NCBI RefSeq assembly: GCF_026004115.1
Contig: NZ_BPIM01000001.1
Coordinates: forward strand, 3,172,594 to 3,236,593
DNA from: Meiothermus sp.
GTDB lineage: Bacteria; Deinococcota; Deinococci; Deinococcales; Thermaceae
Length of the DNA: 64,000 nucleotides
Direction: 5' to 3'
Part shown: positions 31,510 through 57,857 of the stretch, piece after piece
Layout of the letters: each line of letters starts with the position of its first letter
How positions within the stretch are numbered: position 1 is the stretch's first letter
The notes under the pieces: model-generated
Database searches by the model: none
What the model saw: only the letters and a program-made list of their open reading frames with translations
What the model was told of the DNA's origin: nothing
Translations under genes and position numbers: made by a program

Positions 31510-31757
31510 ATACCAGATTCGGTTGATTCTTTACCAAACGGCAGCGAATCTACCCGACCAAAGTTATCCGCGTAGCGGCGGGCAATACCGCCGTTGGAAA
31601 GGGCGACGCTTTTTCACCGACCGACAGGGAGCGGAATGCTCTAGAAAGACAACCTCTGGGATATTTGGTTTTGCAACGGTCTTTTTGCATCCTAAAGCAC
31701 TCCCTTCGGCCCTGTTAGTTCGCCGCCATCCGGCGCCGAACTAACCGAATCTGGTAT
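31510..31757. repeat. MITE-like modular repeat, copy 4 (248 bp, composite), immediately upstream of the cas operon
   Basis: A perfect 15 bp terminal inverted repeat, ATACCAGATTCGGTT...AACCGAATCTGGTAT. The inner modules are in the opposite orientation to copy 3. Confidence 0.8.
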
Positions 31758-31904
31758 TAGAGCGGTCTCCAAGTACTTCCGCTCTAAAGTGGCAGCACAT
31801 TTAGCGTAATATACTCAGATTATATTCTAATACTTTTTACTATTTCTAAAAAATGGACGGTTGTTGGACGGTATTGTGCTAACTTTGCAACAAGCAAAAC
31901 TGCC

Positions 31905-34900: not shown

Positions 34901-35159
34901 CGAGGAGGCCCTGGCCCTCATGCAGGAAGCCCGTGAGCGGGGCATCGCCGCCGACTGGATTCACCGGGCGCGGCCCTACACGGTGCCCTTCTTTTTGCCC
35001 CACGGGGGGCCGCCGGCCTTCCTCGAGACGGTCTTTCTGCGCTACGGTCGCCAAAAAAGCGAGGTTCCCGACTGGTTTTTATGCCCCGACCCGGCCTGCT
35101 ACCACCCTTCGCTGGGCTTCACCCCTGCCGAGGGCGGGCAGGCAGGTCTGGTTATTTGA
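31905..35159 (+). CDS. cas3: Cas3 (HD nuclease plus SF2 helicase, type I-C) fused to an N-terminal HTH-WYL-WCX transcription-factor-like module
   Basis: Residues 1 to about 335 have an HTH (SKALRLLRLLELLQQKPWKPAELRQELGLGERAIFDYL), a WYL-type core (VVAFEYR..VYVIGKD..LRTYKLERI) and a C-terminal extension (RVEVLKPTSLRQKWLAEARQVLERY). From about residue 344 the sequence is Cas3: HD motif KLHDLGK, helicase motif I APTGSGKT and motif II LLFDEVQ. Confidence 0.9.
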   Translation: MFGLPELNYHQSKALRLLRLLELLQQKPWKPAELRQELGLGERAIFDYLNEVETLAERLGLRFVHDTLRSTYHIEVVERLSLTETVVAFATIRMLAHHAPGTNKTYQEALRKLAKHLPEPLKTLALKSTNALQLRPPSLNGANLETLTQGWLERRVVAFEYRIPQGGVFGVELETYFIEVSRANMAVYVIGKDRLYGRNIHYLDNLRTYKLERIQRPRLLEASYSIPDDFDPGLYLSTAWGIVGGANPQKVLLRFTPEASERIREGGYPNLSILEQLEGGDTLVEITVGTDHIGFPLELLPWIQSWGPRVEVLKPTSLRQKWLAEARQVLERYDPQRVTGPKTYWAHTHKDPTRWQTLQEHAAQVARLAAEKARPFGDSEKADLAGKLHDLGKYGDLFQRRLEGKEKGLDHWSAGAHVALFEYRAPELALAIQGHHIGLQSGAKESLKAMRLREDGQGYPPELRLSETRLEVLQERLQSDGLELPPPSQAQIALPQSAAAMLETRMLFSALVDADFLDTERHMQGEVRPSPPPLQAALALEKLEARLQALANQEGLPQPIRALRRQVSEACAAAAQAPARLFTLTAPTGSGKTLSMLRFALQRAAQDPRIRRIVVVLPYLSILDQTVHIYRELFADFGPHYILEDHSLAYRPLRKEFSDEQDILERERRLLSENWEAPIILTTHVQLLESLHASRPGACRKLHNLAGSVLLFDEVQTLPTHLAVPTLKTLAHLASDKYSSVVVFATATQPAFDTLHDKIQENEPQGWQPQEIVPNPEALFGQSQRVAVEWWLKNPTPNPALATLLAADEQALAVLNLKRQAQALFQQAQERGLEGLYHLSTALCPAHRKAVLGQIKARLDQREPCRLIATQVVEAGVELDFPIGYRALGPLEAIAQTAGRVNRHGLRREGRLVVFLPEDEGYPDRAYAQAAQLTRALQAEGGLELTPAAFRRYYQSLYGLQKVSDPEVEQLIKTQNYAELARRYRIIESPAVNVVVPYNEEALALMQEARERGIAADWIHRARPYTVPFFLPHGGPPAFLETVFLRYGRQKSEVPDWFLCPDPACYHPSLGFTPAEGGQAGLVI

Positions 35160-35207
35160 ACACCGGGGTGCAGGAGCAAAGGCTATTTTTTTCCCAAAGG
35201 AGGTTCT

Positions 35208-35954
35208 ATGCGAAGTTTTGTGCTCGAGGTTTGGGGGGAGCTGGCTTGTTTTACAAGGCCCGAGTTCAAGGTGGAGCGCTTCAGCTACCCCCTCATCACC
35301 CCCAGCGCAGCCCGGGGCATTTTCGACGCCATCTACCTGGACTTTGACCCCCAGAGCCAAAAGTCCCTCATGTACTGGCAGGTGGAGCGCATCGAGGTGC
35401 TCAGGCCGATACGCTACATCAGCCTGATGCGCAACGAGGTCAAGGAAAAGGCCAGCCCACGCAACATCCAGGCCTGGATGAAAGACCCCAGCCGCCTCGA
35501 GCCCCTCTATGCCGACGCCACCAGTAACGAAACCGGCCAGGACACCAAAGGCCGCACCCAGCGCCAGACCATGGCCCTCAAGGACGTGCGCTACCGCCTG
35601 AGCGCCCACGCGGTGCTCTACCGGGAAGACCCCGCCCTGCGCCAGAAAATTGAGCACAGCTTTGAGCGGCGGGCCCGTGCCGGGCAGTGCATCTACCAAC
35701 CCTACCTGGGCTGCCGCGAGTTTAGCGGCTACTTCCGGCTGGTCGAGCCCGGCGAGGAAGCCCCGCCTGTGGACTACCACGAAAAGATCGGCTGGATGCT
35801 CTACGACGTCTTCGACCTCTCGCGACCGGGGGCCCCGCTGCGTACCGACAAAGGGGAAAAGCCCCGCATCAGCCTGTTCGAGGCCGAGGTGGTGGCGGGG
35901 GTGCTGCTGGTGCCCCCCTATGAAAGCGAGCGGGTCAAGAAGGGGGTGGGTTAA
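35208..35954 (+). CDS. cas5: Cas5c (Cas5d), type I-C pre-crRNA endonuclease subunit
   Basis: [43 protein letters not shown] is the typical Cas5d N-terminus. Confidence 0.9.
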
Positions 35955-37798
35955 TGCTCGCGCAGTTGGTGGAGTACGCCCGGCAAAAAGGCCTGGGCAC
36001 CGAACCCGGCTTTACCACCAAGGAGATTCGCTGGCTGGTGGGGGTGAGTCCGGCTGGAGAGTTCACCGAGCTGATCGACCTGAACCAAACCAAACCTGCC
36101 CCCGACCTCTCCCAGCCCGACATGATGAGCCTGCCCGGCTACTTGCGGGCGCAGGGTCACACCGTCGAGCAGGCCGCCCACTTCCTGGCCGACACCTGTG
36201 CGGTGGTGTTTGGGCTGGCCGAGCGGGACGCCGCAGGGAATATCAAAAAGCCCGAGGAACATGCCAAAAACCTCCTGAAGCACGCTGCCTTCCGGCTGCT
36301 CATCCAGTTGGCGGCCAGAAACGTACCGCTCCTCGAGCCCATCGCCAAGGCGCTCTCCGACCCCCAGCAGGTGCAGGCTTTCTTGCAGAAGCTGGAGGCC
36401 CAAGCCCAGAAAAGGGGGCCAGAAAGGCTCAAATCCACCGACAAAATCTCTTTTTTCGTGAACGGCCGGTGCGTGCTGGACTGCCCCGACTGGCACGACT
36501 GGTGGCGGCAGTTTAGGGCCCAGGCCTTCCCCAAGTCGGGCGAAGAGGGCCAGATGCCCTCGTTCGCCAGCGGCGAGCTGGTCACTCCGGCTTCCACCCA
36601 CCTCAAGGTCACCCGGCTGGGCGGGAGCGCCTTTGGCCACGCTTTGGTCACCTACGACAAGGAGGCCTTCGAGTCCTATGGCCTCTCCCAAGGGGAGAAC
36701 GCGGCGGTAGAGGAGGAGGCCGCTACCGCCTACCGGGCCGGGCTGGACGCGCTGTTGGAGAAAGCCCAAACCCTGGGCGAGATGAAGGTGGTGGTCTGGT
36801 ACGACCGCGAGATTCCCGAGGAAGACGACTTCTTCCGCGACCTCTTCGCCCCCAGCAGCGGCGAGGCCGAGGAGCTACAGGCCCTCGAGCGCGCCCACAA
36901 GGTGCTACAAGCCCTCAAGACCGGCCAGGCCCCGCCCAGCCTGCGCCAGGCCCGCTTTTTCGCCACCGCCATGAGCCCAGCCTCGGGCCGGGTGATGGTG
37001 CGCGACTGGCAAATCGGCAGGCTGGAAGACTTCGTGGAGGCCGTAACAACCTGGTTTGAGCAACTGGCCATCGTGCGCAAGGGCGGCGACCGCCCGGCCA
37101 GCCTGCCGGGGTTGAACCGGCTCTTCCTGAGCCTGCAGCGGCCCAAATCCCCCGACCAAAAGCTGGACGACTACCTCAAGCCCGTCAAAACCTTGCAACT
37201 CCCCCTCTGGCGAGCCGCCCTGAACCCCAGCCTGCCCATCCCTTACGCCGCCATCGCCAAAATTATGGAGACCCACACCGCCGAGGTGATGACCGGGGCC
37301 TTTACCGAGGCCCTGAACACCCAGAAACCCGACGCCGCCGCCCTGGGGCGCATCTACGCCCGCATGGGGCTTTTGAAGGCCTACCACATCCGCAAAGGAG
37401 GGAAGATGAGTACCGCCCTAGACCCCCACCACCCCAGCCCGGCCTACCACTGTGGCCGCTTGATGTGCCTCCTGGCCCAGATCCAGGAGGCCGCCAGCGA
37501 GTCCGAGATCAACGCCGGGGTGGTGCAGCGCTACTACGGCGCTGCCAGCAGCACGCCGGCCCTGGTGCTGGGCCGCCTCACGCGGCTTTCGCAGCACCAC
37601 CTGAGCAAAATGGCCAAGGACGCCCCCGGCCTGGCCTACTGGTTCAACACCCAACTGGCCCAGGTCTGGAGCGCCCTGGGGCCCAGCCTCCCGCGCACCC
37701 TGAGCCTGGAAGAGCAAAGCCTTTTTGCCCTGGGCTACTACCATCAACTGGCCCAAAGCCGCAAGGGCAAGCAGGAGGGCGAGACTCAATCCGCATAA
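35954..37798 (+). CDS. cas8c: Cas8c (Csd1), type I-C large subunit
   Basis: Assigned by position between cas5c and cas7c, its 614 aa size and a Csd1-like N-terminus. The ATG overlaps the cas5 stop (TAATG). Confidence 0.85.
37406..37798 (+). CDS. cas11: Predicted internally translated small subunit Cas11c (130 aa, in frame within the cas8c 3' end)
   Basis: An in-frame ATG at 37406 is preceded by a strong AAAGGAGGG Shine-Dalgarno. Type I-C systems are known to make Cas11 by internal initiation in cas8c. Confidence 0.5.
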
Positions 37799-37828
37799 AT
37801 CCAAGCCAAACCCTGAAAGGAGATGTTT

Positions 37829-38818
37829 ATGTCCCAGCCCATCCAGAACCGCTACGAGTTTTTGCTCTTCTTCGACGTGCAAGACGGCAACCCCAACGGC
37901 GACCCCGACTCGGGCAACGCCCCCCGCGTAGACCCCGAGGACGGCCACGGCCTGGTGAGCGACGTGGCCCTCAAGCGGCGCATCCGCAACTACGCCCAGG
38001 CCGCCGGAGCCCCCATCTTTGTGCAGCACGGCACCAACCTCAACCGCTCCATCTTCGAGGCCCACGAGAAAACCGAGGGTGGGTTCACCGCAACCAAAAC
38101 CAAGGACAAGGTAGAAGCGGCCCGCCGCTGGATGTGCGGGCAGTTCTTCGACGTTCGCACCTTTGGGGCGGTGATGAGCACCGGGGCCAACGCCGGGCAG
38201 GTGCGGGGGCCGGTGCAGATCACTTTTGCCCGCAGCCTCGACCCCATCTTTCCCGCCGAGTTCAGCATCACCCGCGGCGCGGTGGCCGAGGACGTCAAGA
38301 ACGCCAAAACCCTGGAAGACTACCTGCGCTGGGAGAAAGAACAACCCGAGGACAGGCTGCGCACCATGGGCCGCAAGAGCCAGGTGGCCTACGGCTTATA
38401 CCTGGCCAAGGGCTTCATCAGCGCCCACCTAGCCCAGGGCACCGGCTTCAGCCAGGCCGATCTTAAGCTTTTGGTGGAAGCCCTTTTGAACATGTACGAC
38501 CACGACCGCAGCGCCTCCAAAGGCATGATGGCCACCCGCCGGCTTTACCTTTTCCAGCACGTGGGCAACGGCGACCCCCACAACGCCGAGCAAAACAAGC
38601 GCCAGGCCATGCTGGGCTGCGCCCCTGCCCACCGCCTGCTCGATCTGGGCCAGGTGGTCTCGGTGGGGCGACTCGACGAAAGCAAACCCCCCCGCCGCTT
38701 CGCCGACTACGAGGTAAAAGCCGACCCCCAGAAGCTACCCAAAGGGGTGCGGATGTTGGAACTGGACGCCTGGGACGAGGCCCGCTTTGACCGCTGGATG
38801 GGAGGGCAGGATGCCTAG
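37829..38818 (+). CDS. cas7: Cas7c (Csd2), type I-C backbone subunit
   Basis: [49 protein letters not shown] is the Csd2 hallmark. The start is at MSQPIQ, after AGGAG. Confidence 0.9.
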
Positions 38819-40103
38819 AACCATCCCCTTTTCGCCCCCCGAACTCAAGACACCTGCGTTGGAGACCTGGACGCTCAGGCTCAAAACCATCACGCCAATG
38901 TTCGGCGGCAGCGCTACCCCGCGCGAGGTAGACCCGGAAAACCCTGTTCGGGCGGCCAGTGTGCGCGGGCACCTGCGCTTTTGGTGGCGGGCTGTGGCGG
39001 GGGGACGGTATGCCAGTGCGAAAGAGTTGTTCGAGGCGGAGGAGGAAATTTGGGGCAGTGATGCCATCCCAGGAAAAGTTTCCATAAAGGTATTGGAGGC
39101 GAGGGCATCAGAGCCCAAGCCTTGCTGTACTTATGAGCATCCGCGAAGAGATGGGGGAACTGAGCTAAAAACCTACCCTTATTTTGGGGAGTACCCCGGA
39201 TATGCTCTTTTCCCGTTTCAGGGCAAGGCCCGGAGAGACAAACAAAGTGGCGTAATAACTATTACTGAGCAGCCATCTAAGTGTCTCGAAGAAGTAAGCT
39301 TTACCCTATGCCTTTCTTTTCCTAACTACATCAAGCCCCAAGTAGAACCGGCCGTCGCCTTTTGGCTAAAGCTTGGCGGAATAGGGGCGCGTACAAGGAG
39401 AGGCTGCGGAAGCTTAGAGATTGTTGAAGATTCGCTTCCTCAAAACACGAAGCTCGAATCTTTATTGGGTCGCAAAGCAAATAGTCTTCTCACAACGGTT
39501 CCAATCGTTTGTTTTGTGGGCGAAGAGAAAGAATCGCCCATCCAAGCATGGAAAGAGGCAGTTGAGGTTTACAAGGAGTTCCGGCAAGGAAAAGATTACG
39601 CCAGAGACCCAGGCTCTAATCCCAAATCTGCAAAACTCGGACGTTCAAGGTATCCAGAACCCGATACTATTCGCGAAATGTTTTCGCAAGAGAGTTGGCG
39701 GCACGGAGTAAAACATCCAGTTAGAGGCTTTCCTCGAGCCGATCTAGGCCTCCCGATAGTTTTTCACTTTCAGGAAGAAGGCCCTAAAGATGAAAACTTC
39801 TACCTCGAGTCCAACTATTCACGCGGTTCACGGTTTGCCTCGCCGGTCATTACGAAAGCGATGAAAAAGAATAATGGCTATGCTCCGGCTATTATTCTGC
39901 TCAACGCACCTCATGTGTGGGAGGCTGGAAACTTTACGTTGAGGTTGCGTTCGGATGTGCATGTAATAAAAGAGAACTTTGTTAATCTTGATCGGCACAG
40001 TCGAGAGCACATACCACCGCTGAGAATGTTTGGCTCCAAACCGATTCGCGAAGCATTGTGGGATTTCATAAAGTCCAAGGGCTACCAGGAGGTGCGCCTA
40101 TGA
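38811..40103 (+). CDS. cmr1: Cmr1 (type III-B RAMP)
   Basis: ITPMFGGSA...[16 protein letters not shown] is the Cmr1 signature. The ATG overlaps the cas7 stop by 8 nt. Confidence 0.8.
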
Positions 40104-41584
40104 GCCACCTGCTCTCCATCTCCCTGGGCCCAGTGCAAGACTTCATTGCCGCCGCGCGCCGCACCACCGACCTGTACGCAGGTTCGCAGATTTTGCAGGA
40201 ACTGAGCAAGCACGCCGCGCAGCACTTGGCTTCGCAGGGGGCTACGCTCATCTTTCCAGCCAACCAGAACGCCGACGGGGCCAACAAGATTCTGGCCGAG
40301 GTAAAGGACGACCCTAAGCAGCTTGCCGCGAAGACCAAAAAAGCCGTTCAGGACAGGCTATTGAGTCTCTGGGACGAGACCAAAGGCAAACTTCCCGCCG
40401 AGCAACAGAACCTGATTGACCAAGCAAGGGCCCAAGAGCAGCTTGGGTGTTTTCTCGAGTTCTACGCCGCCTGGGTGCCGCTGCCCAACAAGGAGGCCTA
40501 CAGGGAGGCCCGGCTTCAGGTGGAGCGCCTCTTGGCCGGGCGCAAGGCTTTGCGGGACTTCGCCCCCACCCAGCAGAGCGACGACGGCGTGCCCAAGTCC
40601 CCCCTCGACCCCTCCTGGGCGGCGGTGATCGATCCCCGACAGTGGGGGGATGTCAACATCCGCCTGGCCGTTGGCTCCTACCGCCCACTGCGCATCAAGC
40701 CCACCGAGCACCTCGACGCCATCTCGCTCCTCAAGCGCTGTTACGGGGTGCTGAACTCGGACAAAGTGGTGGACACCCGCACCATGGCCCGGCGCTCCTG
40801 GAGGCCGGAAGCAAAGCCCGACGAGCGCTACGGCGAGGAAGACGACCATATCCCAGAGCCCCAGCCCTACCTGGCCATCCTGGTGGCCGACGGCGACCGC
40901 ATGGGCGAGCTGATCGCGCGGCAGGACGACCCCAATGCCCACCGTGGGCTATCAAAAACCCTGGACGACTTCGCCAAAGAAGCCCGCAAAATTGTGCCCA
41001 AGCACAGGGGCTTTATGGTCTATTCGGGCGGGGACGATGTGCTGGCCCTCCTGCCAGTGAATCGGGCCATCGCCTGCGCCAAAGACCTCTCGGAGGAGTT
41101 TCGCCACCGGGTCAAGGGCACCCTTTCGGCAGGAATCGCCATTGTGCACTACCGCGAGCCGCTTTCCATTTCCCTGCAACATGCGCGATATGCGGAGAAA
41201 GCCGCTAAGAACGGTGGACGGAATGCCCTGGCGGTGGCCCTGCACACCCGTGGTGGCTCGCCGGTCACGGTGGTGCAGCCCTGGAACGAGCTGTCCTGGG
41301 ACGAGCTGCTCGAGGCCTACCAAAACCGCCAGATTACCCGTGGCCTGGCCCATGAACTGCGCGACCTGGTGCAGGAGTGGCAGGACGACATGCGGGCCGA
41401 TTACCTCCATAAGGAAGCCCAGCGGGTTCTGTCTCGCAAAGAGGCCCGCAATCTAAAAATCCCCGCACCCGCCAGCGACACCCCCACCTACCGCAAAGCC
41501 CTGCTGCGCTTTGTGGATCAGCTCATCATCGCCCGCTTTTTGAGTGGCCTTCAGGAGGAAGAGCATGCCGGAAAGAGTGCTTGA
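40100..41584 (+). CDS. cas10: Cas10/Cmr2, short form without an HD domain, cyclase GGDD motif intact
   Basis: It starts directly at SLGPVQDFIAAARRTTDLYAGSQIL. It has VADGDRMG and YSGGDDVLALLP and is 494 aa. There is an ATGA overlap with cmr1. Confidence 0.9.
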   Translation: MSHLLSISLGPVQDFIAAARRTTDLYAGSQILQELSKHAAQHLASQGATLIFPANQNADGANKILAEVKDDPKQLAAKTKKAVQDRLLSLWDETKGKLPAEQQNLIDQARAQEQLGCFLEFYAAWVPLPNKEAYREARLQVERLLAGRKALRDFAPTQQSDDGVPKSPLDPSWAAVIDPRQWGDVNIRLAVGSYRPLRIKPTEHLDAISLLKRCYGVLNSDKVVDTRTMARRSWRPEAKPDERYGEEDDHIPEPQPYLAILVADGDRMGELIARQDDPNAHRGLSKTLDDFAKEARKIVPKHRGFMVYSGGDDVLALLPVNRAIACAKDLSEEFRHRVKGTLSAGIAIVHYREPLSISLQHARYAEKAAKNGGRNALAVALHTRGGSPVTVVQPWNELSWDELLEAYQNRQITRGLAHELRDLVQEWQDDMRADYLHKEAQRVLSRKEARNLKIPAPASDTPTYRKALLRFVDQLIIARFLSGLQEEEHAGKSA

Positions 41585-42698
41585 AATCCACGCCCTGAGC
41601 CCCCTGCTTTTCCGCGACGGCAGGCCCTTTAGCGCCGCCGACGGTACCGAGACCGCCGCCCGGAGCCTGAGTCTGCCCTTGCCCAGCACCGTGGCGGGCT
41701 TCGTGCGGACGCAGGTGGGGCTGGCCGAGGGCAAGGGGTTTAGCCAGGAGCACCTGCAAAATCTGCACGGCCTTCAGGTGTGCGGGCCGCTGCTGGCTCG
41801 AGACGACGAGGTGTTGCTACCCGCCCCCCGCGATGCGGTGGTGTACCGGGATGCTGAAGGCAATGCCCAGGTCATGAAGCTGACCCCCTTTAGCCCCCCC
41901 GCGGGCCCAGGCTGTGACCTGCCGGACGGCCTTTTGCCCTTGCAGATCACCCAGGACGTGAAGCCCGAATCGGGCTACAACTTCTGGACGGCCCGCAACG
42001 TGGAGCGCTGGCTATTGGACGAGAGCCTGGTGCCCGAAAATATCTCTGGCCTCCCCACCGAGACCCGCGTGCACGTGGCCATGGACCCCGTCAAGGGCAA
42101 AGCCAGGGAAGGCCAGCTATACAGCGTGGCCTACCGGCCTTTGGAGATGGGCGAGAACCCCCAAACCTACCAGCCCGCCAGCCTGCGGGTGCGGCTCTCG
42201 CTGTCCAACGGGCAGACCCCGGCCCCCATCGGCCACCTGGGGGGCGAACGCCGTCCGGTGGCGGTGGAGGTGAAGGAAAGCCTTTCCGAGCACTGGTTCG
42301 ATTGCCCGGAGGCTATCAAAAAGCGCTTCGCCGAGATGGGAAAAGGGGCTCGAGTGCGGCTGGTGCTGGCCACGCCAGCCCTGTTCGAACACGGCTGGAA
42401 ACCTGGCTGGATCGAGAAATCGGGCAGTGGCGAGCTTCATCTGCCTCGAGGTCTGTGCCGGGTGAAACTCAAGCTGGTGGCCGCCGCAGTGGGGCGGCGC
42501 GAGCCGGTGAGCGGCTGGAGCCTGCGGGAAAACCGGCCCAAGCGGGTGCGTTGGATGGCGCCCGCAGGCAGTGTGTATTTCTTCGAGGTGGTGGAAGGCC
42601 AACCAGCCGACCTGCTGGAAAGCTGGCTCAGGCCCATTAGCGACCTCAAGCAAGATCGCAAGGACGGCTTTGGACTGGCCCTTTGGGGAGTGTGGTGA
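41565..42698 (+). CDS. cmr3: Cmr3
   Basis: ALSPLLFRDGRPF N-terminal motif. The start follows AGGAGGAAGAGC and overlaps the cas10 3' end by 20 nt. Confidence 0.85.
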   Translation: MPERVLEIHALSPLLFRDGRPFSAADGTETAARSLSLPLPSTVAGFVRTQVGLAEGKGFSQEHLQNLHGLQVCGPLLARDDEVLLPAPRDAVVYRDAEGNAQVMKLTPFSPPAGPGCDLPDGLLPLQITQDVKPESGYNFWTARNVERWLLDESLVPENISGLPTETRVHVAMDPVKGKAREGQLYSVAYRPLEMGENPQTYQPASLRVRLSLSNGQTPAPIGHLGGERRPVAVEVKESLSEHWFDCPEAIKKRFAEMGKGARVRLVLATPALFEHGWKPGWIEKSGSGELHLPRGLCRVKLKLVAAAVGRREPVSGWSLRENRPKRVRWMAPAGSVYFFEVVEGQPADLLESWLRPISDLKQDRKDGFGLALWGVW

Positions 42699-42700
42699 AC

Positions 42701-43489
42701 ATGCACGCAAAGATGATTTTTTGGCAGGCCCTTACGCCGGTGCACCCCGGCACCGGGCAGGACAGCAGCAGCGTGATTGACCTTCCCGTAGCCCGCGAAG
42801 CGGCCACGGGTTTTCCGGTGATACCGGCCAGCAGCCTTAAGGGGGTGCTGCGCGATGGGCGCGATGATGAGCAAAGCAATAGACTTTTCGGCTCCTTAGA
42901 AAATGCAGCCGAACTGACCCTGACCGATGCCCGCCTCTTGTTGCTGCCGGTGCGCTCGTATGCGGGCACCTTTGCTTTCCTGACCTGCCCGCTGGTGCTC
43001 GAGCGGCTCAAACGCGACCAGAAGGCCTTGGGGCTTCCTGAGCTGAAAGCTCCGATACCGAACCCGGGACAGACCGAAGCTCTCGTACCCAAGAACACTC
43101 AAATTGTGCATGCTAACCAGGTAATCCTCGAGGACATAGACCTGAGTGCCACTGTCGGAGGCGCAGAAGCGCTGGCGCAGGAACTGGGGCAACTGGTCTT
43201 TGGCGCGGAGTCGAGCTACTTTGTGGGGCGCTTTGCATTGGTATCCAACGAAGTGTTCGATTACTTTTGCGAGATGGGCCTCGAGGTCATCGCCCGGGTA
43301 CGCCTGGAAAACGAGAGCAAAACCGTAGCCAACGGCGCTTTGTGGTACGAGGAAGCCATCCCTGCCGAGACGGTGTTCTCGAGCTTCGCCATCGGCAATG
43401 GGTTCGAGGAACTGAACCGGCCCTACATCCAGATAGGCGGCCAGGCCAGTGTGGGCCGGGGGCTGTTGCGGCGGTTGGGGGGTGAGTAG
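42701..43489 (+). CDS. cmr4: Cmr4 (RNA-cleaving backbone RAMP)
   Basis: ALTPVHPGTGQDSSSVIDLPVAREAATGFPVIPASSLKGVLRD is the Cmr4 pattern. Confidence 0.9.
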   Translation: MHAKMIFWQALTPVHPGTGQDSSSVIDLPVAREAATGFPVIPASSLKGVLRDGRDDEQSNRLFGSLENAAELTLTDARLLLLPVRSYAGTFAFLTCPLVLERLKRDQKALGLPELKAPIPNPGQTEALVPKNTQIVHANQVILEDIDLSATVGGAEALAQELGQLVFGAESSYFVGRFALVSNEVFDYFCEMGLEVIARVRLENESKTVANGALWYEEAIPAETVFSSFAIGNGFEELNRPYIQIGGQASVGRGLLRRLGGE

Positions 43490-43491
43490 CC

Positions 43492-43870
43492 ATGTCCCAA
43501 ACACGCAGCCAAAAGGACATGCAGCAGGCGCTGGAGCTGGTGAGCAGCCTCGAGCGGGCCGACCCCGAGGTCAAGCGCATCTACGGCGGCCTCTGCCACA
43601 GCTTCCCGGTGATGGTCCTGCAGAGCGGGCTGTGCCAGGCCGTGGCCTTCAGCGCTGATAAAGCCAGCGGCGACGGTAAGCGGGCCCAGGCGCACCAGCA
43701 TTTGCTTGAGCACCTCGGCGAGATGCTGGGCGTAAGGGGCAAGCTGCTGGAGGCGTTGCAGTCGGCACCCACGCCCCTGTACATGCACCACACCCGGCGG
43801 GTGCTGGAAGCGTGGGTGTACTTCAAGCGCTTTGCGGTAAGCGTACTCGAGGTGCAAGCGGGGGAAGACC

Positions 43871-43881
<11 letters not shown>
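43492..43881 (+). CDS. cmr5: Cmr5 (type III-B small subunit)
   Basis: 129 aa helical protein with the motif IYGGLCHSFPVMVLQSGLCQAVAF, positioned between cmr4 and cmr6. Confidence 0.85.
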
Positions 43882-44841
<960 letters not shown>

Positions 44842-44845
<4 letters not shown>

Positions 44846-45900
44846 GCACTGTCGTCCTCACCACCGTCGGCACCAGCCTGCTCTTCAACGCCCGCCGCGA
44901 GGGCCTGGTAGAAGACCACCAGATTCTGGCTTACCTGAAGCAAGACCCCAAAAAAGCCAGCGCCGAGACCAACTCGCTTTCGCGCATTTTGCAAAAAGGC
45001 GATGAGGTGGTGCTGCTGCACAGCGACACCTTCGAGGGCGCTAACGCCGCAAACTTGCTGAAGCTTTTCTACGAGGAGCAGGGGGTGCCTTGTGGTCGGG
45101 TGCGCATACCCGGCCTGGCCTACGAGGCCCAGGGCTTTGTGGACTTTGGCCTAAAGAACTTTGTGCGCACCCTGGCCGGCGAGATTCGTAAGGCTGCCAA
45201 GGGGCAGAAAGACGTCATCATCAACGCCACCGGGGGCTTCAAGGCCGAGATTTCCTATGCCACCGTGCTGGGGCTGGTGTTCAAGGTTCCGGTCTGCTAT
45301 ATTCACGAGCAGTTCAGGGAAATTGCCATCCTGCCGCCCACGCCCATCGGTTGGGATAGTAGCTTGTTTGTTTTGTATGGCGACTTTTTCGACTGGCTGA
45401 GCGAAGGCGAGGGGGGCGTGCGCCCCAAATCGGAGGTGCAACCCAGGGCAGCTCTGTTGCCCGAAGAAGCACAGGTTTTGCTGGAGGAGTTCGAGCTCGA
45501 CGGAAAGCCTTACGTGGGGCTATCCCCTTTGGGCGAGGCCTACTTCGAGGCCTTTCGGGGTGAACTCGAGCAGGCCCAGACCATCCCCATCTACCTCGCG
45601 CCCAAGGCCAGGCGCACCTGGGAGGGCCTCGAGCCCGCCACCAAAGAGCGCTACCGCAAGCTGCTGGAGCGCCTGCGCCTGCCCAACCGCGCTACCAGCA
45701 GCGAACTCAAAAGCGGCGGAGGCGACGCTCTGGGGTTTCCCAAAGGGCACACGGACGAGCGGGTTTTTTACGCCGAGAAGGACGGTGCGCTGTATGTGTT
45801 CGCCCTCACCCACCACGGCCCGGAGTACGAGCGGATGTGCCAGGAGGGCTTCTACTGGCGTGATTATTCTCCGCAGGATTTCACCCTGCTCGACGAGTGA
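44842..45900 (+). CDS. CARF domain protein with a C-terminal RelE/ParE-like domain (cOA-responsive effector candidate)
   Basis: N-terminal CARF motifs LTTVGTSLL and INATGGFKAE. By eye, the C-terminal roughly 95 aa (IYLAPKARRTWEGLEPATKERYRKLLERL..ERVFYAEKDGALYVFALTHHGPEYERM) align position by position with E. coli RelE. There is an ATGA overlap with cmr6. Confidence 0.7.
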
Positions 45901-45927
45901 AGCCCCCAAAGCCTGTCCGGAGGCTTT

Positions 45928-46584
45928 ATGGACGAGACGGACGACCTATTCCCCCCAATAGACCCGCCCAGCCCCGCCGAGCGGGAGCCCCTACCCCTGA
46001 GCGCCCTGGCCCAGTACACCTACTGCCCCCGCCGGGCCGCGCTGATACTGCTGGAGGGCGAGTGGGAGGACAACGAGTACACCCTGCGCGGAACCCGCGC
46101 CCACGAGAATGTGGACATTCCCGAAGGGCTCTTGCGCGAGGGGGTCTGGGTCGAGCGGGCCTTGCCCATCTGGTCGGAGCGGCTGGGGCTTTCAGGCCGG
46201 GCCGATGTGGTGGAGTTTGTGAACGGGGTGCCCTACCCGGTGGAGTACAAGGTGGGCCAGCGGTGGCCCCGCGAACTGGCCCGCAAAGCTGCCGAGGTAC
46301 AGCTCTGCGCTCAGGCCTTGTGTCTGGAGGAGATGTTCGGCCAGAGCGTACCCGCCGGGGCTTTGTTTAGCAAGGCCAGCCAGCGCCGCCGGGAAGTCCT
46401 GTTTACCCCGGAGTTGCGGGCCGCTACCCTGGCCACCCTCAGCGCCCTGCGCAAGCTTTTGCGTCAGGAACGCTTGCCCCCGCCCGCAGCAGACGAACGC
46501 TGCCGCCACTGCTCCCTTCATGCGGTGTGCATGCCCGAGGTGCCCCAGGCGTTGGTGCATTTCCTCAGCCACAACCAGCCATGA
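45928..46584 (+). CDS. cas4: Cas4 (RecB-like nuclease with Fe-S cluster)
   Basis: YTYCPRR at the N-terminal Cys and C-terminal CRHCSLHAVC. Confidence 0.9.
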   Translation: MDETDDLFPPIDPPSPAEREPLPLSALAQYTYCPRRAALILLEGEWEDNEYTLRGTRAHENVDIPEGLLREGVWVERALPIWSERLGLSGRADVVEFVNGVPYPVEYKVGQRWPRELARKAAEVQLCAQALCLEEMFGQSVPAGALFSKASQRRREVLFTPELRAATLATLSALRKLLRQERLPPPAADERCRHCSLHAVCMPEVPQALVHFLSHNQP

Positions 46585-47600
46585 CTACCGAGCTGCTCAA
46601 TACCCTCTACATTCAGACCCAAGGCGTATACCTGCGCCTCGAGAGCGACACCCTGCGCATCCAGCATGAGGACGTAACCCTGCGCCATGTCCCGCTGCAC
46701 CACCTGGGGGGCTTGGCGCTTTTTGGCAACGTGCTGGTTTCGCCCTTTTTGCTCCACCGCTGCGCCGAGGAGGGCCTCGAGGTCGCCTGGTTTAGCGAGT
46801 CGGGCCGCTTTCAGGGGCGGCTGGCAGGGCCGGTCTCGGGGAATGTGCTGCTGCGGCGGGCTCAGTACCGGGCCCTGGATAACCCTTCGACCTGCTTGTA
46901 CCTGGCCGCGCGCTTTGTGGAGGGCAAGCTTAAGAACGCTCGCCTGGTGCTACAGCGAGCCGTGCGCGAGCGGGGCGAAACCGAGGCTCTGAATCAAGCA
47001 CTTTTTGAACACGAAGCGGCCCTGCGCCAGCTTCCCCAAGCCCGAACGGTGGACGAGGTGCGGGGCCTCGAGGGACAGGCGGCCAGCGCCTATTTCGCGG
47101 CTTTTGGCGATCTGTTGCTCTCGGGCGAGTTCCGCTTTGAAGGGCGCAACAAACGCCCCCCGCGCGACCCCGTAAATGCCCTGCTGGGCTTTGTGTATGC
47201 CCTGCTCACCACCCAGTGCACCGCCGCCCTGGAAGGGGTAGGGCTCGACCCCCAGGTGGGCTTTCTGCATGCCCTGCGACCCGGTCGCAACGCCTTGGCC
47301 CTGGACTTAATCGAGGAGTTTAGAGCCTGGTGGGCCGACCGGCTGGTGCTTTCGATGATCAACCGCAAGCAGCTCTCTCCCGAGCACTTCGAGGAGCGCC
47401 CCGGCGGTGCGGTTTTGCTGAGTGAGGAAGGGCGAAAGGCGGTTATCGTGGCCTTTCAGGGCCGCAGGCAGGAAACCCTACAGCACCCTTTGTTCAAAGA
47501 GCCCGTACCCATCGGGTTGCTGCCCCACATCCAGGCCCGCCTGCTGGCCCGCTACCTGCGGGGCGACCTGCCCGAGTACCCCCCGTTTGTAGGAAGGTAG
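46581..47600 (+). CDS. cas1: Cas1 integrase
   Basis: TLYIQTQGVYLRLESDTL...NALLGFVYALL...GFLHALRPGRNALALDLIEEFR. ATGA overlap with cas4. Confidence 0.95.
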   Translation: MTTELLNTLYIQTQGVYLRLESDTLRIQHEDVTLRHVPLHHLGGLALFGNVLVSPFLLHRCAEEGLEVAWFSESGRFQGRLAGPVSGNVLLRRAQYRALDNPSTCLYLAARFVEGKLKNARLVLQRAVRERGETEALNQALFEHEAALRQLPQARTVDEVRGLEGQAASAYFAAFGDLLLSGEFRFEGRNKRPPRDPVNALLGFVYALLTTQCTAALEGVGLDPQVGFLHALRPGRNALALDLIEEFRAWWADRLVLSMINRKQLSPEHFEERPGGAVLLSEEGRKAVIVAFQGRRQETLQHPLFKEPVPIGLLPHIQARLLARYLRGDLPEYPPFVGR

Positions 47601-47602
47601 AT

Positions 47603-47902
47603 ATGGAGCGGCTGGATATTCTGGTTACCTACGATGTCAACGTAACCTCCGCAGACGGCCAGACCCGCTTGGCCCGGGTCGCCAAGGTCTGCAAGAACTT
47701 TGGTCAGCGGGTGCAGATGTCGGTGTTTGAGTGCCGCGTGACGCGGGCTCAGCTCGAGGACATGGAGGCCAAACTACTCAAAATCATCGAGCCCGACAAA
47801 GACAGCCTGCGCATCTACACCCTGCCCGGAGGCCGGGAGAAGTGCTTGCGGGTACACGGCCAGGACAAGTACACCGACTTCGACGACCCCTTGGTGGTCT
47901 AG
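47603..47902 (+). CDS. cas2: Cas2
   Basis: 99 aa with VTYDV...RVAKVCKNFGQRVQMSVFEC. Confidence 0.9.
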   Translation: MERLDILVTYDVNVTSADGQTRLARVAKVCKNFGQRVQMSVFECRVTRAQLEDMEAKLLKIIEPDKDSLRIYTLPGGREKCLRVHGQDKYTDFDDPLVV

Positions 47903-48103
47903 GCCACCCTGGCACTTGCTTTGCGCGAACCCCAAGCAAGTGCCAAAACCCGGGGGGGTTCGCGCAAGCCGAGAAATCGGCTAGGGGACATTGAAAACCT
48001 GTTTTCCCTTCACCTTGCCCCACCCTGCGCCGGAACCCTTTTCAGGGGGGTTCGCGCAAACGGCCTCTTGAGCTTTGTCCAGCACGCACGCTAGAATGAG
48101 GCC
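47903..48103 (+). promoter_or_regulatory. CRISPR leader (201 bp) with a candidate promoter TTGAGC-N18-TAGAAT (48068-48097) and repeated motifs
   Basis: It lies between the cas2 stop and the first repeat. Degenerate repeats are at the far end of the array, so this end is the leader. The -10 element ends 6 nt before repeat 1. Confidence 0.6.
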
Positions 48104-51100
48104 GTTGCACTCGGGCGAAAGCTCGAGTGAGGATTGAAACCCTGATCCGCGATGCGCTGCGCTTCCGCCGAGTCGTTGCACTCGGGCGAAAGCTCGAGTG
48201 AGGATTGAAACCTGGCAGGCCTTGGAGCAATGCTTGGAGTCCCTGGTTGCACTCGGGCGAAAGCTCGAGTGAGGATTGAAACCTGGCCGACCAGCCGCGC
48301 GATCATCCGCTCGGCGTGTTGCACTCGGGCGAAAGCTCGAGTGAGGATTGAAACTGGTAGGTCGAAGGGTATATCTTTACGCGGATGGGTTGCACTCGGG
48401 CGAAAGCTCGAGTGAGGATTGAAACACAGAAGTGCCACAAATAGCGTCCAGGACAACAAGTTGCACTCGGGCGAAAGCTCGAGTGAGGATTGAAACGTGC
48501 CGTGTGCTCAGTAAGCATTTCCTCTAAAGCGTTGCACTCGGGCGAAAGCTCGAGTGAGGATTGAAACACATAAACGTACAACCCACGGCCCACTCGAACC
48601 ACAAGTTGCACTCGGGCGAAAGCTCGAGTGAGGATTGAAACCTCGAGGACGATAGCCCAGAGGGGCTTCGCACCAACGGTTGCACTCGGGCGAAAGCTCG
48701 AGTGAGGATTGAAACAGCTTATCGATGGCCTCCTGGGGGCTGCGCCCGCGGTTGCACTCGGGCGAAAGCTCGAGTGAGGATTGAAACGGCCGTTATCTGT
48801 CGGGCTATGACGACTGGATAGCGTTGCACTCGGGCGAAAGCTCGAGTGAGGATTGAAACACCTGCATCCCTATGTTGAACAAAAATTCTTTAAGTGTTGC
48901 ACTCGGGCGAAAGCTCGAGTGAGGATTGAAACGCAAGCCTCACAGGTGGTATAGCGTGCGTTGTAGCAGTTGCACTCGGGCGAAAGCTCGAGTGAGGATT
49001 GAAACTCGTAGCCCAGGAACAGCCGCCGGTCGTACTCAAGTTGCACTCGGGCGAAAGCTCGAGTGAGGATTGAAACCCGCACCAGCCAATCGTCATCCGA
49101 TACTAGCCGCCAGTTGCACTCGGGCGAAAGCTCGAGTGAGGATTGAAACTTGAACTGAAACAATATTGTTTTCTCTGCCCAAAGTTGCACTCGGGCGAAA
49201 GCTCGAGTGAGGATTGAAACTGCTAACGCGCAGACATTCACGATCTGCGCAAACGTTGCACTCGGGCGAAAGCTCGAGTGAGGATTGAAACAGCGCCGCT
49301 AAGGGAGAATCGGCAGCCATGTTCATGTTGCACTCGGGCGAAAGCTCGAGTGAGGATTGAAACTTCTTTAGGGCGAATCATACCATTAGAATATTTTGTT
49401 GCACTCGGGCGAAAGCTCGAGTGAGGATTGAAACAGAGATGGGCTCCACGGGAATGACTACCTTATTATCGTTGCACTCGGGCGAAAGCTCGAGTGAGGA
49501 TTGAAACCTTCGAGGGGTTCTACAGGTATTACTACCTTGTTATGTTGCACTCGGGCGAAAGCTCGAGTGAGGATTGAAACCCCTGCTGGATGGCGTCGTT
49601 GAGCAACGCCACCACCGGTTGCACTCGGGCGAAAGCTCGAGTGAGGATTGAAACGCGAGAGATGCACTAATGCTCGAGTCATACTCACCGTTGCACTCGG
49701 GCGAAAGCTCGAGTGAGGATTGAAACTCCTCACCGGGGAGGACATCCCCCAGGGCTGGGCGCGTTGCACTCGGGCGAAAGCTCGAGTGAGGATTGAAACT
49801 ATAGCTGTTCCAGCTTCTTCAGTACTTCCAGATCCGTTGCACTCGGGCGAAAGCTCGAGTGAGGATTGAAACGAGTGCGAGGGGCGGCTCATAGAGGTAA
49901 AGGCCGCGTTGCACTCGGGCGAAAGCTCGAGTGAGGATTGAAACTATGCGTTTAGCGTTTAGGCGTTTAGGCGCGTATACGTTGCACTCGGGCGAAAGCT
50001 CGAGTGAGGATTGAAACGCGAGAGATGCACTAATGCTCGAGTCATACTCACCGTTGCACTCGGGCGAAAGCTCGAGTGAGGATTGAAACCATCAGGAATG
50101 AAATAAACTGTATAAACATCATCTGTTGCACTCGGGCGAAAGCTCGAGTGAGGATTGAAACAGGAGAACGCCCTTGTAGAGGCTTTCCTTTTCCTCGTTG
50201 CACTCGGGCGAAAGCTCGAGTGAGGATTGAAACTAGCCATTAGGATTGACAACGATTTGGCTTGGAGGATGTTGCACTCGGGCGAAAGCTCGAGTGAGGA
50301 TTGAAACAGCCAAAAAATATCTTTCGAATTCAATTAACTGTACGTTGCACTCGGGCGAAAGCTCGAGTGAGGATTGAAACGTGCATAAAATGCACAATGT
50401 CTTCAGCCAGAGATAGTTGCACTCGGGCGAAAGCTCGAGTGAGGATTGAAACTTCTAATTTATTTCCAGTAGCAATAAAATGAAGGTTGCACTCGGGCGA
50501 AAGCTCGAGTGAGGATTGAAACTCGACGACGGCGAGAAATCCCGCGGGCCCCATCCCGTTGCACTCGGGCGAAAGCTCGAGTGAGGATTGAAACCCGAAC
50601 GAGAAAAAAGCTGTTGGGAGAAATCTCGCGTTGCACTCGGGCGAAAGCTCGAGTGAGGATTGAAACGCTAAACAACGACACCACATTATTCAGAAGGGCG
50701 TGTTGCACTCGGGCGAAAGCTCGAGTGAGGATTGAAACAGGCATCCCATACAGCCGTACGTCCGTAGGCGACCCGTTGCACTCGGGCGAAAGCTCGAGTG
50801 AGGATTGAAACCGACTCCCGCGACGAGGAGCGGGTGCGCGCCCTCGTTGCACTCGGGCGAAAGCTCGAGTGAGGATTGAAACCCCGAACGCCTCGCTAAA
50901 ATACGGCAGCCCGGCTAGTTGCACTCGGGCGAAAGCTCGAGTGAGGATTGAAACATCGCGGGCAGGTCTGTATCGTACCCCCAGCCCAGTTGCACTCGGG
51001 CGAAAGCTCGAGTGAGGATTGAAACTCGCCGTCGCAACCATCTGGGCTGGGCCTTTGAGTTGCACTCGGGCGAAAGCTCGAGTGAGGATTGAAACGGCGG

Positions 51101-52319
51101 TCAAAGGGCGGGCAGGCGGCAACATCAAGCGTTGCACTCGGGCGAAAGCTCGAGTGAGGATTGAAACGCCAGGCGAGTCAAGATTCTCTGGGAGTCCGTA
51201 GCATGTTGCACTCGGGCGAAAGCTCGAGTGAGGATTGAAACGCACTCCCCACATTCCAGGCCCCAGTAGGCCACGTTGCACTCGGGCGAAAGCTCGAGTG
51301 AGGATTGAAACGTTGCGGGCTTCGCCGTTGCCTGGGGGATCCAACCGTTGCACTCGGGCGAAAGCTCGAGTGAGGATTGAAACGAACAGTTCCGACCTGA
51401 AGTGTAGCAGGTCTTCCTGTTGCACTCGGGCGAAAGCTCGAGTGAGGATTGAAACTTTGACCTGGCTTACCGCTACCTCAATCCTGGCTCGTTGCACTCG
51501 GGCGAAAGCTCGAGTGAGGATTGAAACTCAAAGGCCCCGCGGAACTTGAATGCCCCGTGGGCGTTGCACTCGGGCGAAAGCTCGAGTGAGGATTGAAACC
51601 TTCAAATCGACTAGGAAAACGTAGGAAAACGGAGGGTTGCACTCGGGCGAAAGCTCGAGTGAGGATTGAAACAAGCACCACCAGCGAAGACATCCTGATT
51701 GCCCGTCTTGTTGCACTCGGGCGAAAGCTCGAGTGAGGATTGAAACAGACCACACCCCCGCTGGCGGGGTGCGGTATTCCACGTTGCACTCGGGCGAAAG
51801 CTCGAGTGAGGATTGAAACAATTCAATCTCTATTTGGCTATTTTCCACCGGAAGTTGCACTCGGGCGAAAGCTCGAGTGAGGATTGAAACTTACGCGGAT
51901 GCGGGCAATGTTTTGCCCGTTCCGGCGTTGCACTCGGGCGAAAGCTCGAGTGAGGATTGAAACCGATGGTCGCGAGGGCTTGCGGGCCCGTGTGGAGGTT
52001 GCACTCGGGCGAAAGCTCGAGTGAGGATTGAAACTGGAGCGAGGGCGGCAGCACGTCCTGGGTCGAAGGTTGCACTCGGGCGAAAGCTCGTGTGAGGATT
52101 GAAACCTACGCGCCTTGTTGCTAGGAAGTTTACGCCGTCGTTGCACTCGGGCGAAAGCTCGAGTGAGGATTGAAACATTCCTGAACCTATGGGACAGGCC
52201 CGCCTCGAGTGGTTGCACTCGGGCGAAAGTTCGAGTGAGGATTGAAACAGAAAATCATCCAGAATTTCCTGCACGGCTTTTTGTTGCACTCGGGCGAAAG
52301 CTCGAGTGCCGAACAATAG
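48104..52319 (+). CRISPR. CRISPR array: 59 repeats of 37 bp (GTTGCACTCGGGCGAAAGCTCGAGTGAGGATTGAAAC) and 58 spacers of 33-37 bp
   Basis: Every unit was hand-indexed. Repeat 56 carries A>T at 52091 and repeat 58 carries C>T at 52230. The last repeat (52283-) matches only its first 26 nt. The repeat ends in ATTGAAAC on the same strand as the cas genes. Confidence 0.98.
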
Positions 52320-54585: not shown

Positions 54586-54951
54586 TCAGGGCAGTATACC
54601 CCTTAACAGGATTTCTCTCAAACGCCCTGGTCGGGCCGCCCCCGAGCAGCTTTCGGTGTCGCGGCACAGGGCCACATAGCGAAAATGCCGCTCATTTTCA
54701 GCCACACCAAAGCGGAAGAACTGCGCTGCCGTGCGAGAGACATGTCTTAAGCAGGCCTCGCAGATGATGGGCGTGGAGCTAGCAGAGCGCTCGAGGGGTT
54801 CCAGAACCAGATGGAGCGGGCTTTCCTCGATGTGAACCCGCCCCTCCTTGTCCCGGTAATAAAGCACTTCCCCCGGAGGCAGCAGCTCCGGGGAAGTTCC
54901 AGGGAACAACTCTAAAATCAGCTCCCGCTCTTCGAAGATTTTTTCCCCCAT
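54586..54951 (-). CDS. Hypothetical protein with a CxxC...Cx5C zinc-finger-like C-terminus
   Basis: 121 aa with CEAC...CRDTESC. It may belong to the FBP C-terminal treble-clef family, but this is unverified. Confidence 0.4.
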   Translation of the reverse strand: MGEKIFEERELILELFPGTSPELLPPGEVLYYRDKEGRVHIEESPLHLVLEPLERSASSTPIICEACLRHVSRTAAQFFRFGVAENERHFRYVALCRDTESCSGAARPGRLREILLRGILP

Positions 54952-56856: not shown

Positions 56857-57857
56857 AAATGGCTCTTGCCACCCGTTTGATTTCCCTGGTTGCTGTGTTT
56901 CTAACCCCCTTCACCCTGTCTCAGGCCCAGAACCTGACCCTCGAGGCCGCGCTGGCCAGGGCCGCCGAGCAAGCCCCGGTAGCGGCGGCCAAGGCCGAAC
57001 TGGACGATGCCAGCGCCAACCTGCAAAGGGTGCTCTCTGACCCACTTCTAACCCGCCCCAGCAAGGTACAGGCCGAGCAGCGGGCCGCACTGGCCCAGGC
57101 CAGCTACGAGCGGGCACTGGTTCAGGCCCAGAGCAGCATTGTGGGGGCGTATGCGCAGGTACTCGAGGCCCAGTTGCAAGTGCGCCTGGCCCAGAAGGCC
57201 CTCGAGGTAGCCACCCGCGGCCTGGAAATTGCCCAGATTCGCCAGCGCAACGGCTCCGGCACCGCCCTGGACGTGCGCAACGCCCAGAACCGCCTGGACG
57301 ACGCCCGCAGCAACCTCACCCGGGCCGAGAACGGGCTGGCCCTGGCCCAGGCCTCGCTGCGAAGCCTGGTGGGTGCGTTCTCCACGGTAGCGCCGTTGCC
57401 CAATCCCCCTGCCCTGCCGGAAGCCACCTCCGTGCAGGGGCTGCTGGCTAAAAACCCCGACGTCATCCAGGCCCGCCAGCGAACCGAGCTGGCCAACCTC
57501 CAGGTGGAACTGCTCGACCCCAGCTACGCGGCCCAGGCCGAGATAGCAGCCGCAAAGTCGCGGGCCGAGCAGGCCAGTGCGGGCGCTCGGGAAATCGAGC
57601 GGGGGCTGGGGCTGCAATACGACTCGCTGTACCAGAACCTGCAGGCCGCCGCTCGGGCCCTGGCCGTGCAACAGGCCGCCCTGGCCAACGCCCGCGAGGC
57701 CCTGGCCAACGATAAAAAGCGCCTGGACGCCGGGCTGATTAGCCAGGTGGCCTACCTGCAGACCGAGCTTTCCTTCATCCAGGCCGAGCTGGCCGCCCAG
57801 CAAGCCTTGGGCAACTACTGGCGGGCCTACTACAGCCTGCTGGCGGGAGGGCGCTAA
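56853..57857 (+). CDS. TolC-like outer-membrane efflux protein (short, 334 aa)
   Basis: Signal peptide followed by repeated coiled-coil OEP-type repeats. ATGA overlap with the upstream gene. Confidence 0.75.
   Translation: MKMALATRLISLVAVFLTPFTLSQAQNLTLEAALARAAEQAPVAAAKAELDDASANLQRVLSDPLLTRPSKVQAEQRAALAQASYERALVQAQSSIVGAYAQVLEAQLQVRLAQKALEVATRGLEIAQIRQRNGSGTALDVRNAQNRLDDARSNLTRAENGLALAQASLRSLVGAFSTVAPLPNPPALPEATSVQGLLAKNPDVIQARQRTELANLQVELLDPSYAAQAEIAAAKSRAEQASAGAREIERGLGLQYDSLYQNLQAAARALAVQQAALANAREALANDKKRLDAGLISQVAYLQTELSFIQAELAAQQALGNYWRAYYSLLAGGR

Follow-up and report, generated by a model that had tools for sequence, protein, structure and literature searches.

The window, a stretch of 64,000 nucleotides from Meiothermus sp. 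that was analysed at its full length (contig NZ_BPIM01000001.1, forward-strand positions 3,172,594 to 3,236,593), contains a CRISPR–Cas locus in which a type III-B module (cmr1–cmr6) is nested in a type I-C operon. The gene directly 3′ of cmr6, termed here the cami1-like gene, encodes a protein in which a CARF7 sensor domain, a winged-helix-like domain and a RelE/ParE-fold domain are joined in this order (Table 1). A preliminary description, made by a model from the sequence without database searches, had read this gene as a CARF–RelE fusion and as the only ancillary effector of the locus. Profile searches, structure prediction and fold searches recover the same three-domain order, and very probably place the protein in the Cami1 (CARF7–RelE) family of ancillary effectors from type III CRISPR systems, an effector type that is already known.

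Table 1. Genes, domains and residues of the cas locus (window positions; conservation counts refer to 117 full-length homologues of the cami1-like protein)
Feature	Position	Strand	Basis or remark
WYL-WCX-cas3 fusion	31905-35159	+	type I-C; profile scans
cas5c	35208-35954	+	type I-C
cas8c	35954-37798	+	type I-C
cas7	37823-38818	+	type I-C
cmr1	38787-40103	+	type III-B
cas10/cmr2, predicted cyclase	40058..41584	+	Pfam Cmr2_N, Cas10-Cmr2_palm2; TIGR02577 E 3.2e-55
cmr3	41544-42698	+	type III-B
cmr4	42683-43489	+	type III-B
cmr5	43492-43881	+	type III-B
cmr6	43871..44845	+	TIGR01898 E 5e-34; stop overlaps cami1-like start
cami1-like gene, CARF7 - winged helix - RelE fusion	44842..45900	+	352 residues plus stop; open reading frame, PADLOC, Foldseek, BLASTP
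CARF7 (APE2256) sensor domain, residues 1-170	44842..45351	+	Pfam PF09651, TIGR02619, Crn1 homology
S12	44875-44877	+	CARF pocket; conserved 116/117
E42	44965-44967	+	CARF pocket; conserved 117/117
K134	45241-45243	+	aligns with Sis0811 K169; conserved 117/117
Middle winged-helix-like linker domain, residues ~174-245	45361..45576	+	AlphaFold2 (AF2) model, Cami1 alignment
RelE/ParE-fold nuclease domain, residues 248-352	45583..45897	+	domain-only AF2 model, Foldseek
P300			RelE domain; conserved 117/117
G302			RelE domain; conserved 117/117
R307	45760-45762	+	aligns with RelE R61; conserved 117/117
H325	45814-45816	+	aligns with Cami1 His that is Ala in 8phj; conserved 115/117
Y329	45826-45828	+	aligns with RelE Y87; conserved 116/117
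cas4	45928-46584	+	directly 3′ of cami1-like gene
cas1 (type I-C)	46527-47600	+	
cas2	47603-47902	+	
CRISPR array	48104-52248	+	58 copies of 37-nt repeat GTTGCACTCGGGCGAAAGCTCGAGTGAGGATTGAAAC

Gene boundaries and domain architecture

The open reading frame (ORF) around the cami1-like gene extends from 44782 to 45900 on the + strand, and translation from the ATG at 44842 gives a 352-residue protein whose N-terminus reads MSTVVLTTVGTSLL. This ATG is the likely start codon, because homologues begin at a Met aligned with it and the PADLOC model covers residues 1–351. The upstream ATG at 44782 was rejected as a start: it would create a 64-nt overlap with cmr6, and the homologues and the PADLOC model begin at the short form. 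The ATG (44842–44844) overlaps the TGA of cmr6 (44843–44845) in an ATGA junction (ggatttATGAgc), as had been described before, and an AGGAG lies 11 nt 5′ of it. The CARF motifs quoted earlier, TVGTSLL and NATGGFK, are residues 7–13 and 128–134, and the quoted KARRTWEGLEPATKERYRKLLERL and ERVFYAEKDGALYVFALTHHGPEY are also present. The protein has 404 homologues, mostly full length, and the closest database protein (97% identity) comes from a Meiothermus metagenome-assembled genome.

Residues 37–166 match Pfam Cas_APE2256 (PF09651, E 1.4e-31) and TIGR02619 (E 2.5e-21). Together with matches to PADLOC CARF7 models, these profile hits assign the N-terminal domain to the CARF7 family, in agreement with the CARF sensor proposed at first. 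In both sequence and fold searches, two ring nucleases of the Crn1 type, Sis0811 and Sso1393, emerge as homologues of this domain. Ser12, Glu42 and Lys134 are predicted to be ligand-binding and ring-nuclease residues; in Crn1-like proteins and Sll7062, the equivalent residues have been implicated in the binding and cleavage of cyclic oligoadenylate (cOA) (PMC9676260). The retention of ring-nuclease residues in the CARF7 domain had gone unmentioned in the preliminary description.

The region described earlier as a linker or winged helix-turn-helix is seen in the AF2 model as a winged-helix-like domain consisting of helices (residues 174–211), a β hairpin (214–227) and a further helix (229–245), with a predicted local distance difference test score (pLDDT) of 77–93. 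It aligns with Cami1 residues ~195–256.

The assignment of the C-terminal domain rests on structure, on profile-to-PDB alignment and on homology to Cami1, not on Pfam. With the whole-protein AF2 model (pLDDT 90.3), the four best Foldseek matches in the PDB are chains of Cami1 (8phj/8phb, E 7.5e-18 to 1.6e-16), followed by the Crn1 proteins Sis0811 and Sso1393 and then by RelE toxins. When the last 110 residues were modelled separately (pLDDT 89.6), the RelE/ParE fold was obtained, and no non-RelE fold was assigned: all 50 PDB matches listed for the C-terminal domain alone are Cami1 or toxins of the RelE/ParE superfamily, among them Thermus thermophilus RelE, Escherichia coli RelE, archaeal RelE, HigB, YoeB, YafQ and ParE. 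The domain alone reaches query-normalized TM-scores (TMq) of 0.69–0.70 against Cami1 and target-normalized TM-scores (TMt) of up to 0.72 against RelE toxins; for T. thermophilus RelE (2khe), TMt is 0.71 and the root-mean-square deviation 2.4 Å. E. coli RelE is the best PDB match without a CARF domain, with RelE residues 7–92 aligned in HMMER. Thus, the alignment with E. coli RelE that had been drawn by eye is reproduced over these residues and is solid by structure, its support in sequence being marginal (see below).

Certain residues of the C-terminal domain are as strongly conserved as those of the CARF pocket. Arg307 and Tyr329 occupy the positions of RelE R61 and Y87. His325 aligns with the only residue that differs between the two Cami1 sequences in the PDB (His in 8phb, Ala in 8phj); the Ala in 8phj is presumably an inactivating mutation that traps the ribosome complex, in which case this His would be catalytic in Cami1. 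The equal conservation of Arg307, His325 and Tyr329 and of the CARF residues speaks for a catalytic function under selection. Strong constraint is seen in the N-terminal and C-terminal halves alike.

Relationship to Cami1 and other effectors

Cami1 (CRISPR-associated mRNA interferase 1) was reportedly characterised both biochemically and structurally by Mogila and colleagues (Science, 2023). The two PDB entries are titled "apo Cami1" (8phb) and "cA4-bound Cami1 in complex with 70S ribosome" (8phj). In a survey of type III loci, Cami1 was counted in 135 of 1113 and was third among the effector families (PMC11229360), so the statement that CARF–RelE fusions are known but little studied is out of date. 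The same source, summarising Mogila et al. (2023), describes Cami1 as dimeric and cA4-activated, and two others assign intrinsic ring-nuclease activity to it (PMC12409355, PMC12830947).

Every feature of Cami1 or CARF7–RelE membership that can be assessed in silico was found in the cami1-like protein. The PADLOC profile PDLC01937 ("CARF7--CARF_RelE"), which represents this very clade, matches residues 1–351 over its full length (positions 1–344/344, E 1.8e-163). Among solved structures, 8phb and 8phj are the best phmmer matches (E 9e-16), and in a BLASTP alignment with Cami1 residues 59–352 the identity is 28% across 307 columns (E 1e-20). With 40 homologues combined in a profile, the match to Cami1 reaches E 8e-30 (profile positions 39–331, chain residues 59–352) and includes the RelE domain. 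Cami1 is therefore the top match by sequence and by fold. The two proteins share the domain order, the Arg, His and Tyr positions of the aligned RelE domain, the SAE and GGFK motifs of the CARF pocket, and an origin in type III CRISPR loci. They differ in that the cami1-like protein comes from a thermophile (Meiothermus-like) and lacks the ~35 residues that follow the RelE domain of Cami1; the PDB chain also carries ~20 extra N-terminal residues, which may be an expression tag.

Other relatives resemble the protein only in part. Sll7062 ("SyCsm6", Synechocystis PCC 6803), compared by its description (PMC9676260), has the same CARF7–RelE architecture and likewise closes a type III effector operon, but lies in a III-D locus beside Csx1, whereas the present locus is III-B without Csx1. 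The Crn1 proteins (Sso1393, Sso2081, Sis0811) share the CARF7 and winged-helix domains (Foldseek E ~1e-12, TMt 0.61–0.65) and the catalytic Lys at the position of Lys134; in contrast, they have no RelE domain and act as off switches only. RelE toxins, such as those of E. coli and T. thermophilus (2khe), have the fold of the C-terminal domain (TMt 0.57–0.72) and match it at R61 and Y87. Unlike in these toxins, which are neutralised by the antitoxin RelB, the domain here is fused to a sensor, and the near-invariant His325 that it has in common with Cami1 stands at the position of RelE E82. A free RelE/ParE type II toxin was rejected as an identification: the domain is fused to CARF and winged-helix domains, the neighbouring genes are cmr6 and cas4 with no antitoxin gene, and no Pfam toxin family matches. 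Csm6 and Csx1 share the role in the pathway, as cOA-activated RNases encoded beside type III genes. They belong to another CARF family and would act on bulk RNA, whereas the substrate predicted here is ribosome-bound mRNA. Profile scans of the cami1-like protein found no HEPN family, and PADLOC "Csm6" matches are confined to the CARF part (residues 12–176); the Csm6 or Csx1 identification was rejected for want of a HEPN domain.

Predicted activity and alternative readings

By homology to Cami1, for which this mechanism is known (Mogila et al., 2023), the cami1-like protein is predicted to be a ribosome-dependent mRNA interferase that is switched on by cA4 and in turn degrades this activator; to this reading, as to the placement in the Cami1 family, a probability of roughly 0.85 is assigned. 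After the Cmr complex has bound a complementary foreign transcript, the GGDD cyclase of Cas10/Cmr2 would synthesise cOA, most likely cA4. This would bind to the CARF7 domains of a presumed dimer, as in Cami1, leading to repositioning of the winged-helix and RelE domains. The RelE domain would then enter the ribosomal A site and cut the mRNA under translation, so that translation would stop and phage production would be blocked. Slow cleavage of cA4 in the CARF7 pocket would provide a self-switch-off that limits the response.

Activation by cA4 is suggested by CARF7 membership and the conserved pocket residues; both Crn1 and Cami1, the CARF7 proteins that have been characterised, use cA4 (PMC11229360, PMC12409355). 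Cleavage of mRNA in the A site is suggested by homology to 8phj and to RelE, and the toxins RelE, HigB, YoeB and YafQ are ribosome-dependent. Capture by the ribosomal stalk (L7/L12) would likewise follow the characterised homologue. Since ring-nuclease residues of the Crn1 type are retained in the CARF7 pocket, slow cleavage of the protein's own activator would be expected. Sll7062 has been described as a cOA-degrading ring nuclease with no RNase activity on free RNA (PMC9676260). The ring nuclease that the preliminary description proposed to seek elsewhere in the genome is thus probably built into the effector itself, since the ring-nuclease residues are retained in its CARF7 domain; no separate ring-nuclease gene was found among the ORFs scanned in the window. 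The earlier proposal of a cOA-activated, ribosome-dependent mRNA interferase in place of a HEPN-type Csm6/Csx1 is supported by Cami1 homology (8phj; PMC11229360).

Several points weigh against this reading. Identity to Cami1 is about 23–28%, Cami1 has the ~35 additional C-terminal residues, and the two proteins fall in different PADLOC CARF7 sub-clusters: the cami1-like protein matches PDLC01939 ("CARF7--CARF_RelE_like") at E 2.1e-22, far below its PDLC01937 match, whereas the Cami1 fragment taken from the PDB alignment matches PDLC01939 best (E 2.1e-158) and PDLC01937 at E 1.4e-28. In sequence, the C-terminal domain resembles bona fide RelE only marginally (HMMER E 0.06–0.16; hhalign probability 44.6%, pairwise E 2.3e-4). 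No Pfam match was obtained with the C-terminal 112 and 186 residues at E <= 10, the RelE/ParE models being silent, and among 31 homologous C-termini ParE_toxin appeared weakly in one (E 0.009), the other matches being scattered noise. RelE K52 and K54 have no exact counterparts, and at position 324, the one aligned with RelE R81, the protein has His where 71 of the 117 homologues have Arg.

An unlikely alternative is that the protein is mainly an off switch of the Crn1 type, in which the RelE-like domain is inert or has a structural or regulatory role and the real effectors are encoded elsewhere in the genome. After Cami1, the CARF7 domain is indeed closest to Crn1, its Ser12, Glu42 and Lys134 are near-invariant (116–117/117), a 97%-identical protein is named "CRISPR system ring nuclease" in one database, and ring-nuclease activity was the only activity of Sll7062 in vitro (PMC9676260). 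However, Arg307, His325 and Tyr329 are conserved at the level of the CARF residues, and the NCBIfam ring-nuclease model NF040951 reaches only 40.5 bits, far short of its cut-off of 600. A switch would also have nothing local to act on, as neither another effector nor a Cas10 HD domain was detected at the locus, and the homologue Cami1 is a proven effector. On the RelE-site residues, the NF040951 score and the additional RelE domain, a pure Crn1 identification was rejected as the main explanation.

Slightly less probable still, and improbable in itself, is a nuclease responsive to cOA but independent of the ribosome, or one that responds to a signal other than cA4 (e.g., cA6 or cA3). The difference in sub-cluster from the studied Cami1 would allow for this, and Sll7062 bound and cleaved cOAs of several sizes; yet Sll7062 was without RNase activity on free RNA (PMC9676260), and the use of cA4 by the characterised CARF7 proteins argues against another ligand. 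The nearest structural relatives besides Cami1 are RelE, HigB, YoeB and YafQ, which also speaks against ribosome-free action. That the protein is a cOA-sensing transcription regulator resembling Csa3, acting via the winged-helix-like domain between the CARF and a passive C-terminal domain, is very improbable, because Cami1 and Crn1, neither of them known to act as a regulator, have the same linker, and the conserved RelE-site residues would be left unexplained.

The reading from sequence had thus picked out a real CARF–RelE effector of a type already understood. As a thermostable member of an unstudied sister sub-cluster, the cami1-like protein could show the generality of stalk capture and of self-limiting ring-nuclease activity.

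The nested operon, related loci and other features of the window

The cas genes form one uninterrupted string on the + strand, and the locus including the array spans 31905–52248. The cmr1–cmr6 genes and the cami1-like gene are inserted between cas7 and cas4–cas1–cas2 of the I-C operon, with a single array, and the same nesting of III-B in I-C is seen in another Meiothermus locus (L006) and in Calidithermus roseus (L007). A promoter and terminator scan of 31000–48300 gave no more sites than expected by chance and none separating the cami1-like gene from its neighbours. A promoter-like site is located at 48068–48097, directly before the first repeat.

Cas10 is short (~495–508 residues) and carries GGDD within SGGDDV (translation FMVYSGGDDVLALLP); translation probably begins in fact at codon 15, a Met. 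Pfam detected no HD domain in Cas10, and no other CARF, SAVED, HEPN or ring-nuclease gene was found in any ORF scanned in the 64-kb window. The description of the cami1-like gene as the only ancillary effector therefore holds for the cas locus and for every ORF scanned. Because no Cas10 HD domain was detected and no other effector is present in the window, the cami1-like protein would be the only collateral output of the III-B module. Within the scope of the window, the locus is a clean natural case of Cami1 as the sole output of a Cas10 without a detectable HD domain.

The more unusual feature is the conserved nesting of III-B and the cami1-like gene in a I-C operon without cas6 in the window; a cas6 gene may lie elsewhere in the genome. 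Of the 58 repeats, 56 are identical, and two variants are located near the far end of the array. When folded, the repeat forms a 9-bp stem that precedes an unpaired tail of exactly 11 nt (AGGAUUGAAAC; z = -4.4), a layout expected for processing by type I-C Cas5c/Cas5d. The last 8 nt of the repeat (AUUGAAAC) would correspond to the 5′ tag usual in type III. The lack of cas6 in the window, combined with a repeat of I-C type, bears on the source of the CRISPR RNA (crRNA) for Cmr. The use of Cas5d-processed crRNA by Cmr was not addressed in the titles or abstracts listed in a literature search.

A tentative extension, which is possible but more doubtful than not, concerns the sister clade PDLC01937, characterised by a shorter C-terminus and thermophilic hosts. 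Its members might engage the ribosome or the activator differently from Cami1, and the present one appears to be the sole signalling output of a III-B module that lacks an HD domain, has no cas6 nearby and is nested in a I-C operon whose I-C-type array it shares. The crRNAs of Cmr would then come from Cas5c (with an 11-nt handle) or from a host enzyme. If so, the operon would be a single two-tier unit in which I-C DNA interference is backed by III-B/Cami1 translation arrest.

The Cas3 ORF (1084 residues) has a WYL and WCX ligand-sensor or regulator module (residues ~140–330) in frame before the HD and helicase domains, and the fusion is kept in L006 (1079 residues). A PADLOC Cas3c model of 1009 positions aligns with the fusion over nearly the full length (E 8e-217), which makes the fusion a variant already catalogued.

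In five of the six related loci, the homologue of the cami1-like gene follows cmr6, in some of them with one gene in between. The homologue directly follows cmr6 in Thermus caliditerrae (L001) and in the Meiothermus locus L006, which has the same nested I-C/III-B operon including the WYL–Cas3 fusion. In C. roseus, a CARF/Csx1-like gene with a weak match to PF27248 (MJ1674_2nd) stands between the two, and a gene of the same kind is found at this place in Deinococcus (L003). In an archaeal contig (L008), the homologue lies after cmr6 and a Csm6/Csx1-type gene is located downstream, and in Armatimonadota (L005) the homologue is an orphan away from cas genes. These contexts fit the pattern of the survey, in which Cami1 is alone in about half of its loci and its commonest partner is Csx1 (PMC11229360). 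The intervening genes (8754–10004 in L003, from Deinococcus sp. S9, and 8838–10004 in L007) encode ~390–416 residues with the weak MJ1674_2nd match, and the window locus has none. The orphan (L005, 10001–11035) is a CARF–RelE homologue with 44% identity, and the 10 kb to each side of it contain no cas genes.

Housekeeping genes flank the cas locus: at one end these are thymidine kinase, Hsp20, miaA and an amidase, at the other end a class II aminoacyl-tRNA synthetase and greA. The intergenic gap between an unannotated 474-residue ORF and the amidase gene contains, at 27463–27576, 3.1 head-to-tail copies of a 36-nt unit (CTTCCAAGGGGCTTACGCCCTCCGCTACGCGGATAA) with 96% identity; this repeat was rejected as a CRISPR array since it has no spacers. 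Five ORFs outside the cas locus, at 24925–25866 (+), 25932–27356 (+), 57048–58499 (-), 58692–59156 (-) and 54586–54951 (-), have no Pfam, NCBIfam or PADLOC match and show gene-like GC content at third codon positions. At 22159–24150 (+), beside a TetR-family gene and ~8 kb upstream of the cas locus, a 663-residue paralogue of elongation factor G with all five EF-G domains is encoded, which is probably unrelated to the ribosome-targeting effector.

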